Source of the DNA: Sphagnum compactum
Taxonomy: Eukaryota
Length of the DNA stretch: 64,000 nucleotides
NCBI GenBank assembly: GCA_965153455.1
Contig: OZ234494.1
Coordinates: forward strand, 8,122,001 to 8,186,000
Direction of reading: 5' to 3'
Made by a program: the position numbers and the translations under genes. Shown here one piece after another: positions 780 through 5,326 of the stretch; position 1 is the first letter of the stretch; every line of letters begins with the position of its first letter. A model generated the notes under the pieces. The model saw only the letters and a list, made by a program, of their open reading frames with translations, was not told where the DNA came from and did no database searches.

Positions 780-1362
780 GACAGGGCGAACTTCACTATC
801 ACACCTTATTTGTAGTACCTAAGTTATTTTTGTGGAGGCACCCCACCCATCATCGGGCTTTACTCATCCTGAGGCATGAAGGGACATTCCTAAGACAAAC
901 GGGCGGACTCGGGCTCTGGGCCTCAGTATAGGCCCCTTAATTTGGATACTGATCCCACCCTGGGGCTCTAGCATACACATTTCACATCGGCCCTGTCTGT
1001 GAGCAGATTAGTTCCACGTTGTCGACTCTTGCGCCACAAGTGCGCACAACGCACAACACCCAAGTGCAATTCTTGTGTTTTGTTGAAACCTTGAAACTCT
1101 CAGCGCGAATTGCAGTGGTTGTTGGAAAGATTTGGCGATGGCCAAGCACAAATGAAATCTCTTGTTCACAGACCAGCTTGAGCGCAAAATGTGCGAATTC
1201 TCTCACAAAAGTCTTCTGTAGCAAGGATTTTATTTTATCGCCCCTTTTGCCTCTCAGAATTGCTGCTGATTACTAGAATCAGACCTTTTGTGCGTGTGCG
1301 TTTTTGTGTGGTATGTAAGGTAGTTTTATATCATTAGGGTTAAGAATAGACGAGCGGCCTCC

Positions 1363-2933
1363 ATGTTGAGGTTGCCAATGCTGATGGAGAGGAGGACACT
1401 GCTGCTGCTGACGATACCAGAACCGCTTTCAAGGTTCTCAAAGTTCAAAGGAGCAGGCGGGTACTACTTCCAAGCATCGCTGCAGTCAGGACGTAGGAAC
1501 AATAACACAGTATCGGAAGAACCAGTTTATTCGCACAACGTATTTACGAAGCCTCTGGCTGCATTGTACCCTGTCGCTCCTTGTCGCTTCTGCAAAGGTT
1601 AGTTTTTTCACACAGAAACCTAACCCTAATTCCAGATGAAACTAAGCTAATGGAGCTAAACCTTTAAAGTAAAACGTCTCTGATACCGGGGAATTCACGG
1701 CCTTTAAATCTAACCCTAATTCTTGTCATTATTGGACCTTACTTACCTTGAAGGCTTCAGTAGCTTCTGAAAGAAGAGGTAAAACTCATGAAAGTTTCAC
1801 AGGCGAGTCCTTTTGTAGATGTGGAAACACTTGGCTGTGTAATTCTGCTTTCTATGGTCATCAAAGGAAAGGCCAGTCTCCACTTAAGATGTGAAACTAA
1901 TTAGGGTTCATATAAAGGAACAAGTTTTGCAAGAAATTGTTGAGTTGGATGGATACTGAACACTATGGTGTTTGGTAGTGTGCACTATAGACCGCATTCA
2001 ATGTGCTTTATGTCTACAATGTGTGTGACGGCTTTTTAGATTTGTGTAATATGTGACTGAAAGGAATTTTTTATGGGATGTGAGTGCAGGAGAGGGTGAA
2101 GTAGTGTGTGATAAATGTAATGGAAATGGAAATCTTGCTCATGGTGGATATCATAAAAGAAATCTGGTAACTCTCAACCGAATTGTAGGTGAGTTTCTCT
2201 TTTTCTCAAACTTCTTGTGACCTAGCAATCTCTTGCCCCTTCTCTCAAGTAAGATCATCCCCTATGGCATTCAAATTGTGCTTGAAAAATGAAAGTTTTG
2301 CAATTGGAAGTGTGAGAACTAGAGTATGGATTCTTTTGTTGATGAATTACTTTCAGGTTCGAAGTGGACAGCCATGGAGAGCACATTTGGATGGTGTCAT
2401 TTCACTGTGAGCTCTAAACGGAAAGGACCTGGGAAGGACTGGTTCCTGGAAATGGTAGCCACCTGTGATGAATCATCACGGTTTTGGGTCAATTCTCACA
2501 ATCTTAAGGTATTTTTCCTCTAGTGACTGATACAAGGAAATCAATTAAATATGTATGTGGATTCTGCTGGTTTCCATCTGCAGCGATAAAGGTTCTTACC
2601 AATGTAGGAAATTTTTCTTGAAATTTTACACTTCCCTACACCAGTTTGGGTATTTTGTTCTGTTGATTTCTTACACCCCTTAGGTCAGTTCAGGTGTCTA
2701 GTTTTAAGATTTTTCTTTGAATGGAATGCCACCTTATGGTGCGACAGGATAGGGAAAGGTGGAGCTCAGGGTGGCTCCAGAAGGTGGAAATAATGGCAGC
2801 ACAAGGTAAAAGTATGACCAAATCTTTGTTGTGTAAGGCATGTAAGGGCCAGTGCAAGCTACAATGCAAAGCATGTGTGAAATCCAACAGAGATGGTCAC
2901 AATGAACCCTCCCTGGAGATCATCAATGTTTAA
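1363..2933 (+). CDS. DnaJ-type zinc-finger protein with an inserted Trp-rich TIGR02450/DUF2389-like domain, probable organellar transit peptide (223 aa, 4 exons)
   Basis: Exons 1363-1597, 2090-2188, 2357-2508 and 2748-2933 have GT..AG introns (donors gttagt, gtgagt, gtattt; acceptors tgcag, tttcag, gacag). Phases are consistent and the total is 672 nt. Product: ...CRFCKGEG-EVV-CDKCNGNG...RIVGSKWTAMESTFGWCHFTVSSKRKGPGKDWFLEMVATCDESSRFWVNSHNLKDRERWSSGWLQK...CKACKGQC-KLQ-CKAC...EIINV*. The SKWTA...HF...FW...LKD...W..GW pattern is recognised from memory as TIGR02450/DUF2389. The start codon is the least certain part. Confidence 0.88.
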
Positions 2934-5326
2934 GGATACCCGTTGTATACTAGCTGTTACATCATCCTGACAACCTGGACCCTGCATTAACAAAGTAACA
3001 GAAACTGAAAGACACTATTTTATGAGTTAATCACATGAAATTAGAGCACCCCTAATAGGGCTACAATTACATATGGGGAGTTCTCTTGATTTGTACAATA
3101 TATGAACCAAATAAGATGCAGGTTGATGAGACCTATTGCCAAAGTCAGCCTGCCTGGACTCAAACCAGTTTAATCCAAGCTTCTGAGGGAAGAGGTTTCA
3201 CCACTATCAACTTTATTAGTTTTGAGCTGGTTTCTCCATTAGGTCCATATGATGGTTTGAATAGCAGGGTCACAGATCCTCAATTTTTTTCATGAACTGT
3301 GTGGCTGTGAAAATTCTGATAATTAAAGTGTTTGGTTGTATGTTGAAATCTTATTGTTTTAAGTTCTTGTTAGTTCAAAGAATGGCTCTTAAGTTCAGGT
3401 TTTTGTGGCTTAACAATAAAAAAGATATCCGTTATTTTGAGTCTCTCCAAAATTTGAAGGTTGCGAAAGTTTCAAATTTAATCTTTTGAATATAGTAATT
3501 CGATCAGTAATCTTTGCTTTTTTGTTCACTGTGCTTAGTGACAACTTATTTGTATCCCAATGTTGCATGGTCTATTTAGCAAACTTCTACCTATTTTCCT
3601 ATGAGTTTGAGTTCTTGAAGTGTTGTTTGAAGTTCAACTGTTGTGCTGTTGTGCTTCATGGAATATCTCTAGTCCAACTGTTTGTGGATGATGTCTTTGT
3701 CCCGGGTTCCCCAAAGTTTGAGAGTGTTATGTACCTTGATGAAGACTTGTTTGGTGGCAGAATACACCCTAGAGTGTCTTGGCTAGAGGTTTTTTCTTGA
3801 TAAATTGTTTGATTGGTTTGCAGTTTCAATTTTGGGCATTTTTTGAATGATTTTTGTATAATGGCTTATAGTGAGGAGCTTTTTTCAAGGCCCCCTGACC
3901 CTCCCCACTTGCCCTTCAGTGAGAAACTTGGATCCTTTGCAGCTGATGCTTAGTCAACCCAGCCTTGTACTTCACATCAGCTTTGCCATATCCAGAGAGT
4001 TTCACAGAGATTATGGAAGAGTGCCCACAGACTATGCAGGCCAAAAGTTAAGATTGCTGAGCCCTGAAACTTGGGGATAGATTTGTTGAAACCTATAGCA
4101 ATCATCTCTCCATTGATTGCAAACTTCCTCAATTGCAATGTAGGAATATGATATCATAGATGCATGGACAATTCACCCATTGTCTTCATTAGCAGACCAT
4201 TAAGGAGTCTTGACACCTTGCTAGTATCCCTGAACTTGTAACTCATCTTCCTGTCTAGAAATTGTAACAGAGCTAGACCCTTGAACATTAGTTGTCATTG
4301 AAGCCTGGTCAGTTTTCAGGTTAGGAGATTGAGAACGACTTGCTAGTTTGAGCAAGTTGCATTACAACAATTCCATTAGAAGCAAGTTCAAGGTTTGAAA
4401 ATGTTGCACTACATCCTGACAATCTAGCTTCAAGCATGTGTATCAAGCTCAAGATCTTTTCCCAGATCAGCTAATCGTGCCAAGCTCTGCAGAGAGCCCA
4501 TGTTAAAGGCTTCTCTAGTAATGACCCACCACCCACTACATTCCTAATTACTTAATACCACCTTGACAATCTGCCTCATCCCATCCAGCAATGCAAAGAA
4601 CTTCGCTCTTTTGAGTTACAGCCTAGGTTCCTCAAAATAGGAAGCAAAGGAATACACAGGTATGCCCTGACAAAATATGAATAGAAATGAAGAACATTCC
4701 TGGATAATGCATTTTCAAATACATAAAGACAGGATCATGACAGAGAATCACACTTTTGCATCACCAGGCTCTGCTGCACCAAATCATGTGTAATGCCATT
4801 GACATTCGACAAAAGTTCACAGTTGCTCGTAACCATGTCAAAGTTTCTCATAAGAGTGTGTGAGTTACAATATGGTACCTAATTATATTATCATTAAGAC
4901 ATTCTTACTGGATGACAGACAAAGACTATGACAGGAGTCTTCCTCCTAAAAATAAAGCAAAAAGTGAGTACAGTTTCTAAGTAGAAGCAATTTGAAACTA
5001 TTTTCTACAGCATTCTGATCTCTTACTATCCACACTGTTGGTAAGTTACAAATCTCAAAAAATCACTGGCCTAACAAGCCATGTCACATTGACAGGTGCA
5101 AGGGAAAAAAAAATTCAAACCAATAAAATCTTTACAGTCCATGGCAGCTTGGATGAAAGATGAGAGTATGACTTGCCCCTATGTTTCTCCTGTCTCTGCC
5201 CTCATGCTCAGAATCATGCACCACCTTGTTTCCCATAGTGGAAATACTGTATAGAGAAGCGTATACTAGTTAGAAAGTGTATAGAAGTGCATAGTAGTTA
5301 AGAGCCTTTTCTGACCCTTGTAAGGC

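Follow-up and report, generated by a model that had tools for sequence, protein, structure and literature searches.

Gene structure and transcription

The DNA analyzed here is a 64-kilobase (kb) window of the Sphagnum compactum genome, by which we mean the whole stretch of 64,000 nucleotides (nt), with positions counted from its first letter. The nuclear gene under study occupies positions 1363-2933 of the plus strand and encodes a 223-residue protein of unusual construction: a complete domain of the DUF2389/TIGR02450 type, found in cyanobacteria as a small stand-alone protein, is inserted between the two halves of a DnaJ-type zinc finger. In a list of open reading frames (ORFs) the gene appears only as fragments, and a reading of the sequence alone had spliced these into one product by way of an exon (2090-2188) that the list misses. 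RNA sequencing (RNA-seq) and an annotated relative both bear out that model. The four exons (Table 1) join to give 672 nt, that is, 223 codons plus a stop codon, and 220 of the 223 residues are identical (differences at 72, 187 and 206) to those of P0005, a 223-residue 'unnamed protein product [Sphagnum troendelagicum]'. Given this near-identity, the hand-made gene model is the same as the automatic one.

Four public RNA runs were aligned to positions 1100-3400. Run X24 consists of raw reads from polyA RNA-seq, 126 of its 133 aligned reads being at least 99% identical to the window, and runs X1, X5 and X8 are contigs of moss or plant metatranscriptomes. The contigs are 90-99% identical to the window and hence derive mostly from related Sphagnum. 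Junction 1597/2090 is crossed by 12 X24 reads having 11 start positions, junction 2188/2357 by five and junction 2508/2748 by 10, and the X1, X5 and X8 contigs also carry all three. Thus, the three junctions proposed from the sequence are found in raw reads, transcripts join the zinc-finger exons to the tryptophan-rich exons, and the gene is real, expressed and spliced as proposed. All X24 first mates lie on the minus strand, which fits plus-strand RNA in the usual stranded libraries. A minority of transcripts retains intron 2: over 2161-2311 the depth of the X5 and X8 contigs is 27-33 versus about 145 on the exons, and in X24 the intron has a depth of 3-6 versus 10-14. Read-through into intron 2 meets an in-frame stop at about 2221 (ORF 2050-2220), and the resulting product would hold only the first half of the finger. 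By tblastn the 64-kb window holds one copy of the gene.

Table 1 Features of the gene and its transcript
Feature	Position	Strand	Description
5' leader	1100..1362	+	Transcribed, with RNA-seq depth from the first bin; true start at or before 1100
Exon 1, coding part	1363..1597	+	Start codon, unconserved presequence (about residues 1-60), FxKPL..LYP motif, first CxxC (C74, C77)
Intron 1	1598..2089	+	492 nt, GT..AG; 492-nt skip in 12 raw reads and 3 contig sets
Exon 2	2090..2188	+	99 nt; rest of motif 1 (GEG), CDKCNGNG (C85, C88), conserved GGY..N linker
Intron 2	2189..2356	+	168 nt, GT..AG; 168-nt skip in 5 raw reads; retained in a minority of transcripts
Exon 3	2357..2508	+	First 50 residues of DUF2389, with GSKWTA, FGW.HF and ATCD motifs; C148-D149
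Intron 3	2509..2747	+	239 nt, GT..AG, phase 0; 239-nt skip in 10 raw reads
Exon 4, coding part	2748..2933	+	End of DUF2389 (residue 171, nt 2774), helix, motifs 3 and 4, tail LEIINV, stop 2931-2933
3' untranslated region	2934..3350	+	End approximate; X24 depth drops from 21 to about 1 between 2948 and 3332

The FxKPL..LYP motif of exon 1 is conserved, as is the C-terminal tail LEIINV, and the exon 1 donor G/GT lies at 1597/1598 with junction reads present. The cysteines of exon 4 (C191, C194, C202 and C205) fall within nt 2832-2876, and intron 3 interrupts the DUF2389 domain after K162. At the 3' end, contig pieces reach 3348 in X1 and, in X5 and X8, position 3400, the end of the compared stretch. 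The length of exon 2 is divisible by three. In Cryptomeria, one isoform (P0014) has exon-1-like sequence joined directly to exon-3-like sequence and lacks exactly the stretch matching exon 2, and another (isoform X2, P0016) has a 14-residue insert at the point of the alignment where the moss exon 3/4 border lies. In the alignment these two isoforms suggest that moss and conifer share the exon borders.

The inserted domain and the split zinc finger

Four cysteine motifs are present in the order first read from the sequence: CRFCKGEG (residues 74-81) and CDKCNGNG (85-92) precede the inserted domain and CKACKGQC (191-198) and CKAC (202-205) follow it. As CxxCxGxG repeats, motifs 1 and 2 are complete, motif 3 retains only the first glycine and motif 4 is a bare CKAC. 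The insert between Cys pairs 2 and 3 is about 100 residues long (across the family the median spacing of motifs 2 and 3 is 102 residues), and its core is the DUF2389/TIGR02450 domain. The PF09493 (DUF2389) model, for which a hit at about residues 110-175 had been anticipated, matches P0005 over residues 113-171 with a score of 70.6 bits (cut-off 25). Exon 3 alone scores 56.1 bits (E 5.7e-15) against the same model and 37.8 bits against TIGR02450, the cut-off of which is 36.85. Tryptophans W115, W167 and W171 are at least 90% conserved among 92 family members; most of the aligned sequences also have W124 and W155. The NCBIfam type 'hypoth_equivalog' implies a small stand-alone form; here we found an internal domain of a 223-residue protein having Cys motifs on both sides. 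As the bacterial frames are stand-alone, the moss protein holds a DUF2389 domain but is not the equivalog of the bacterial protein.

The finger is closer to BSD2 than to DnaJ proper. The DnaJ cysteine-rich hits expected to flank DUF2389 are present: matches to PF00684 and to BSD2_CRD (PF25436) cover both sides of the domain but lie below the cut-offs. Family-wide, at E <= 0.001, BSD2_CRD was found in 18 of the 92 members and PF00684 in eight. When PDB sequences were searched with the family profile, the best matches were BSD2 (9ci1, E 7.2e-7; 6ekb, E 3.8e-5), with EMB2737 (8xku_R, E 7.2e-5) as third-best and DnaJ (1exk) at E 0.003; the search returned no match for the barrel part. No J domain was seen among the Pfam hits of six members (E <= 10) or of all 92 members (E <= 0.001).

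Five liverwort orthologs (P0008, P0009, P0011, P0022 and P0023) have CxC as motif 4, for example C-I-C-T. Either the last zinc ligand is shifted by one residue in these proteins or the second site is built differently.

Family distribution

A profile search of 1.84 billion cluster representatives matched 463 representatives at E <= 0.001, 231 at E <= 1e-10 and 64 at E <= 1e-30. Among the best 150, 76 have seven cysteines (74, 77, 85, 88, 191, 194 and 202), and 70 of these also have Cys205. A further 24 have only the first half of the finger and 20 only the second, many of them short and probably fragments, and the 30 with neither half include, by their motifs, stand-alone proteins of cyanobacterial type. 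The 92-member alignment was selected for the seven cysteines, which are therefore invariant by construction. Positions conserved in at least 90% of the 92 members are W115, T116, G123, R125, H126, F127, C148, L161, W167, G170, W171 and C205, and PF09493 matches 91 of the 92 members.

By word-index search the same architecture was found in the mosses Ceratodon and Physcomitrium, the liverworts Marchantia, Riccia and Calypogeia, the lycophyte Diphasiastrum, the ferns Ceratopteris and Adiantum, the conifer Cryptomeria, and Chara. Names were looked up for 29 distinct cluster representatives (ten of the looked-up clusters were nameless), which added Ginkgo, Mesotaenium, Closterium, Chlorokybus, Mesostigma, Tetraselmis, Volvox, Astrephomene, Chlamydomonas eustigma, Scenedesmus, Bryopsis, Apatococcus and Flechtneria together with two ochrophytes, Pelagococcus subviridis and Chrysoparadoxa australica. 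In the word-index searches and among the looked-up representatives, the family was seen only in photosynthetic lineages. Its members are labeled 'hypothetical', 'uncharacterized', 'unnamed' or 'tryptophan-rich hypothetical protein', or bear bare transcript or gene-model labels, and no label names a function. The fusion is old and widespread, extending over green algae, charophytes, bryophytes, lycophytes, ferns, gymnosperms and some ochrophytes. A C-terminal end of the form [ILV][ILV][DE][ILVMF] occurs in 32 of the 92 members, and the conserved tail may be a further contact point.

Pelagococcus-type members (P0085, P0087, P0091, P0094, P0104 and P0118) make up a subgroup with support 100/99. 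They have about 130-150 extra residues, highly charged and rich in Lys, Arg and Glu, after the finger and do not have the eighth Cys. Some marine algae thus seem to have built further on the basic architecture.

Origin of the inserted domain

Prokaryotes were scanned at one genome per species with family-derived patterns, which favor close relatives. This gave 45 loci, 44 of them cyanobacterial with a best segment 38-56% identical to residues 110-171; the remaining locus is in a Myxococcaceae genome (37% identity). Searches with the PF09493 model found the domain in 87 of 201 sampled Cyanobacteriota genomes, nearly always as a single copy, in 10 of 151 Myxococcota genomes and, among 14 control genomes, in Synechococcus elongatus only. 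Each of the 78 prokaryotic reading frames that were examined encodes DUF2389 by itself, without CxxC; the frames have 71-215 residues, and those with an identified first Met have about 76-130 residues counted from it. The sequence-only reading took TIGR02450/DUF2389 for a small stand-alone protein of cyanobacteria and proteobacteria; the stand-alone form was seen here in Cyanobacteriota and Myxococcota. The main cyanobacterial type and the plant domain share the GSKWTA, FGWRHF, CD, RFW.N and GW motifs, with the CD pair present in 64 of 67 main-type sequences, and the N-terminus of the cyanobacterial homologs is a basic KKQK stretch. A more distant, second type of DUF2389, seen in Myxococcota and in some Cyanobacteriota, has neither FGWRHF nor CD, and the same is true of the picocyanobacterial form.

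A maximum-likelihood tree (130 domains, 68 columns) unites the domains from eukaryotes with those of the main cyanobacterial type (support 99/92) and keeps 25 of the remaining 26 bacterial sequences outside this group. The exception, the long-branch Myxococcota sequence L087, is placed among the eukaryotic rows. The 68-column tree does not place the eukaryotic domains within a particular cyanobacterial group and by itself gives no direction of transfer. Given the grouping in the tree and the confinement of the fusion to plastid-bearing eukaryotes, the simplest history is that of a gene acquired by endosymbiotic transfer and inserted once, at an early date, into a finger module. An endosymbiont origin of the DUF2389 insert, already suggested in the sequence-only reading, is supported by the 44 cyanobacterial loci of the 45 and by the 99/92 grouping with the main cyanobacterial type.

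A long tblastn match at the cyanobacterial locus L001 (query residues 110-221) resembled a protein carrying the second half of the finger and was rejected, as its ORF has a low-complexity tail without Cys; the same was found for L003, L009 and L040.

The gene neighborhoods of the cyanobacterial homologs were compared at 74 loci, 30 of them with a flank of 1.5 kb only. The neighbors were a DRTGG/AAA_26 protein (16 loci), a pentapeptide-tetratricopeptide repeat (TPR) protein (15), an unknown 127-residue protein (15), a family-2 glycosyltransferase (12), a peroxiredoxin (9) and a radical SAM protein (7). The pentapeptide-repeat and TPR gene is divergent from, and adjoins, the stand-alone DUF2389 gene at its 15 loci (L003, L009, L039 and L040 among these), and the peroxiredoxin gene lies directly downstream on the same strand at its nine. 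Both arrangements may reflect only the relatedness of the genomes.

Predicted structure

Two AlphaFold models were made, model 1 from 24 sequences with a mean predicted local distance difference test (pLDDT) score of 66 and model 2 from 92 sequences with a mean of 81.2. In model 2 the 10-residue blocks over 71-180 and 191-200 score at least 90, with 77 for 181-190 and 89 for 201-210; the N-terminus is unstructured (pLDDT 52-59) and the C-terminal tail scores about 61-63. The models were compared with known folds by an all-against-representatives structural search, in which Z scores below 8 are common. Residues 70..208 of model 2 matched BSD2 (6ekb_A) with Z 5.0, a root-mean-square deviation (rmsd) of 3.0, 52/62 residues and 33% identity, and model 1 matched BSD2 with Z 4.7 and gave the same two kinds of match, one for the finger and one for the barrel. 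In this prediction the two halves come together as a single finger of the BSD2 kind, and the barrel is inserted between motifs 2 and 3. In DnaJ the tip of the finger lies between motifs 2 and 3, and as residues 70..208 align to BSD2 as one unit, the insert would replace this tip. The fold match is backed by sequence, as the family profile finds BSD2, EMB2737 and DnaJ 1exk in the PDB. The early proposal that the tryptophan-rich domain sits at the tip of a zinc hairpin is supported by this model alignment.

The DUF2389 domain is modeled as a five-stranded SH3/Tudor-like beta-barrel. Residues 105-171 of model 2 matched VapX (Z 6.9, rmsd 2.4, 59 aligned), CarD (Z 6.6, rmsd 2.2, 57 aligned), the C-terminal domain of UvrD bound to a lobe of RNA polymerase (Z 6.1) and the PcrA/UvrD Tudor domain (Z 6.0). 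Further matches were histone-reading Tudor domains, domain I of EF-P and PetP (Z 4.9). As Z scores below 8 are common in this search, the SH3/Tudor-like barrel is a fold class and not a relationship. When residues 105-178, which contain the barrel, were compared with the ESM Atlas outside the PF09493 clusters, no usable match was obtained.

Putative N-terminal targeting region

Across the family a median of 77.5 residues precedes the first Cys motif, and this stretch is unconserved and modeled without structure. The first 40 residues contain 4.1% Asp plus Glu, versus 10.4% in the rest of the protein, and 13.6% Arg plus Lys. An acid-poor, basic N-terminus is the usual make-up of organellar presequences. 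The Chrysoparadoxa member starts with a hydrophobic signal peptide followed by ...RASAF..., and the N-termini of two unnamed relatives are similar; such a peptide followed by an ASAFAP motif is the signature of import into complex plastids. An N-terminal transit peptide is plausible for the moss protein, which is probably located in the plastid, and the occurrence of the family in photosynthetic lineages only, as far as seen, points the same way.

Other features of the locus

The 5' leader contains four upstream ATGs (1138, 1152, 1189 and 1313) that open ORFs of 5, 9, 10 and 1 codons, all closed before the main start. These could exert translational control.

A telobox-like octamer, AACCCTAA, occurs in 16 copies in the 64-kb window versus 3.5 expected, and none of 100 shuffles reached 16. 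Four copies cluster at the 5' end of the gene: a minus-strand copy at 1334 precedes the start codon by 22 nt, and intron 1 contains the other three, at 1622 and 1712 on the plus strand and at 1901 on the other strand. Both plus-strand copies are embedded in a longer repeated word, CTAACCCTAATTC. The octamer may be a regulatory element of the telo-box kind.

Downstream of the gene, X1 contigs on the minus strand (records 6 and 7) start within 3356-3400, and loose ends in X1, X5 and X8 agree. This suggests another transcribed unit just beyond the 3' end of the gene, possibly converging on it.

Proposed function and alternatives

The demonstrated architecture and origin are best read as those of a BSD2-like zinc-finger protein that is targeted to the plastid and acts there as an assembly or holdase factor, with the cyanobacterial barrel as its partner-binding module, an assignment that we consider somewhat favored on balance. 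The gene for a cyanobacterial protein would have moved to the nucleus of an early alga and been inserted into the tip of a zinc-finger chaperone, the product of which would be imported into the plastid. There the finger would bind two zinc ions, with motifs 1 and 4 forming one site and motifs 2 and 3 the other, as in DnaJ and BSD2, and we infer that the protein would work as an ATP-independent holdase or assembly factor. The finger would supply the chaperone surface and the barrel the specificity, its conserved Trp residues, His126 and Cys148-Asp149 recognizing a partner that plastids have retained from cyanobacteria. About half of the positions in the barrel are the same in cyanobacteria and land plants, pointing to a partner or a chemistry unchanged since endosymbiosis. 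BSD2 itself is a Rubisco assembly chaperone, with which the molecule name in the PDB agrees, and its client is RbcL. BSD2 and its relatives are modules stabilized by zinc that hold or assemble particular plastid proteins without ATP. A role of DnaJ-like zinc-finger proteins in plastid biogenesis is stated in PMC4806229.

Several observations weigh against this assignment. The finger models fall short on P0005, PF00684 scoring 21.6 bits versus a cut-off of 32.7 and BSD2_CRD 18.3 bits versus 27, and splitting of the finger domain by the insert lowers such scores. Motif 4 lacks GxG and is CxC in the liverworts Marchantia, Riccia and Calypogeia, and the two zinc ions with their 1+4 and 2+3 pairing are inferred only from the superposition on BSD2. 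The best barrel Z scores, 6.4 for model 1 and 6.9 for model 2, are like all the others below 8, and Foldseek found no PDB match at E <= 0.001 for either model. The eukaryotic domains do not form a single clade in the best tree, and the test of their monophyly only narrowly fails to reject it (approximately unbiased test, p 0.0885). No gene neighbor is present at more than 16 of the 74 cyanobacterial loci, and these neighborhoods hold no consistent functional clue. There was no angiosperm among the word-index hits or the 29 looked-up representatives, a sample that is not a genome survey. A mitochondrial or dual location is also possible.

A plastid thiol-disulfide oxidoreductase would use the same cysteines differently: the CxxC pairs, perhaps with Cys148, would cycle between dithiol and disulfide and reduce or isomerize the disulfides of client proteins. 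Such activity has been reported for some other J-less DnaJ-type finger proteins of thylakoids, and LQY1, CYO1 and PSA2-type proteins show disulfide isomerase activity. The protein has four CxxC-type motifs plus the additional Cys148, and Cys148 is at least 90% conserved in the family. The wide occurrence of the CD pair in main-type cyanobacterial homologs (64/67) and the peroxiredoxin gene directly downstream at nine of the 74 cyanobacterial loci fit such a role. However, the closest relative by both sequence and fold is BSD2, a zinc-bound assembly chaperone, and the peroxiredoxin neighbor is limited to those nine loci. Moreover, the cyanobacterial domain has only one or two Cys and thus cannot form a CxxC redox center alone. 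We judge redox catalysis to be unlikely.

A bolder possibility, which we regard as improbable, is that the His126 / Cys148-Asp149 site of the barrel handles a metal or cofactor, making the protein a maturation factor for a cyanobacterium-derived plastid component lost in angiosperms. By the hairpin register of strands 124-134 and 140-146 in the model, His126 and Cys148-Asp149 should lie side by side. The family appears to be lost in flowering plants, and flavodiiron proteins 'were lost in angiosperms' (PMC12344627). In its apparent spread (cyanobacteria, green algae, bryophytes, ferns and gymnosperms, with no angiosperm seen) the family is thus similar to the flavodiiron proteins. A similar spread, without angiosperms, is that of ChlL/N/B, the light-independent protochlorophyllide reductase. 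As the family also occurs in ochrophyte algae, this dark-operative reductase is favored over the flavodiiron proteins.

The barrel could instead dock on the plastid-encoded RNA polymerase, which is of cyanobacterial type, or on nucleic acid, with the finger adding contacts to nucleic acid or protein, in a plastid nucleoid or transcription factor. It would then resemble the Tudor-like domains of CarD, Mfd and UvrD, which interact with RNA polymerase. CarD, UvrD with the polymerase lobe and the PcrA/UvrD Tudor domain are among the best fold matches of the barrel (Z 6.0-6.6), the cyanobacterial homologs have the basic KKQK start, and RNA polymerase would fit a partner conserved from cyanobacteria to plastids. 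These Z scores are, however, in the commonly seen range with a sequence identity of 9-19%, and VapX, EF-P, histone-reading Tudor domains and PetP stand in the same list, so that only the generic barrel fold is shared. By sequence, no nucleic-acid-binding family was found in the Pfam or PDB profile searches, and we consider a role in transcription quite improbable.

Finally, that neighboring zinc-finger and DUF2389 genes were wrongly joined in the gene model or assembly, as the fragmentary ORF list and the stand-alone cyanobacterial relatives might suggest, has a vanishingly small probability, being refuted by the raw RNA-seq reads that span all three junctions, by the recurrence of this arrangement in 76 of the 150 best-scoring cluster representatives, which come from diverse lineages and sources of data, and by the location of the second finger half downstream of the barrel in the exon that holds the barrel end.

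Novelty and significance

No paper naming the DUF2389/TIGR02450 domain or describing the fusion was found in the open-access PMC and bioRxiv literature, consistent with the initial statement that no functional description of the fusion was known. The family is not a rarity, given the 463 cluster representatives matched at E <= 0.001. Known already are J-less DnaJ-type plastid finger proteins as a kind and the family itself as hypothetical proteins with a PF09493 hit. What is new is that the finger is split by an entire domain of cyanobacterial origin and that flowering plants have apparently lost the family.

J-less DnaJ-type finger proteins recur as chloroplast assembly and repair factors: BSD2 acts on Rubisco, PSA2 on photosystem I and ORANGE on phytoene synthase. 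The present family would add an unusually built member to this class, with a complete foreign domain in the tip of the finger, and would give the first functional handle on DUF2389, a domain with no known role that occurs in 87 of the 201 sampled Cyanobacteriota genomes. As the family is seemingly missing from angiosperms, the standard model plants cannot reveal it, and loss in flowering plants would explain why Arabidopsis genetics never encountered it. Physcomitrium, Marchantia, green algae and Synechococcus elongatus are the organisms in which it can be approached genetically. The pattern of presence may point to a partner also lost by flowering plants, and if the barrel were indeed a metal or cofactor site, the family would provide an assembly factor of a new kind and one more case in which a pathway disappeared along with its helper.

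Comparison with known systems

The barrel resembles SH3/Tudor barrels (VapX, the N-terminal domain of CarD, the C-terminal Tudor domain of UvrD/PcrA, PsaE and PetP) in having about 60 residues and five strands, with Z 4.9-6.9 (PsaE 4.5, in model 1) and rmsd 2.2-3.1. Identity to these proteins is, however, 8-19%, and no relation to the moss barrel was found at the level of sequence. The cyanobacterial TIGR02450/PF09493 proteins of the 44 loci are 38-56% identical to residues 110-171 in the best-matching segment and share the motifs, but they are stand-alone and have no CxxC, whereas the moss domain is internal. DnaJ (PF00684, 1exk) has the CxxCxGxG pattern and gives weak profile matches. Unlike DnaJ, the moss protein has neither a J domain nor C-terminal substrate-binding domains among its Pfam hits, and its finger is split.

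To our knowledge none of PSA2, LQY1, ORANGE, CYO1/SCO2 and EMB2737 carries DUF2389. Like the moss protein, these are J-less finger proteins, and they function in plastid biogenesis (PMC4806229). The best solved relative by profile is BSD2, a small plastid protein having a presequence and four Cys-pair motifs of the CxxCxGxG type. BSD2 occurs in angiosperms, where the present family was not seen, and motif 4 of the family lacks GxG. The construction also differs: the BSD2 finger is contiguous, about 60 residues long and without any other domain, whereas the present family has a whole domain between motifs 2 and 3.

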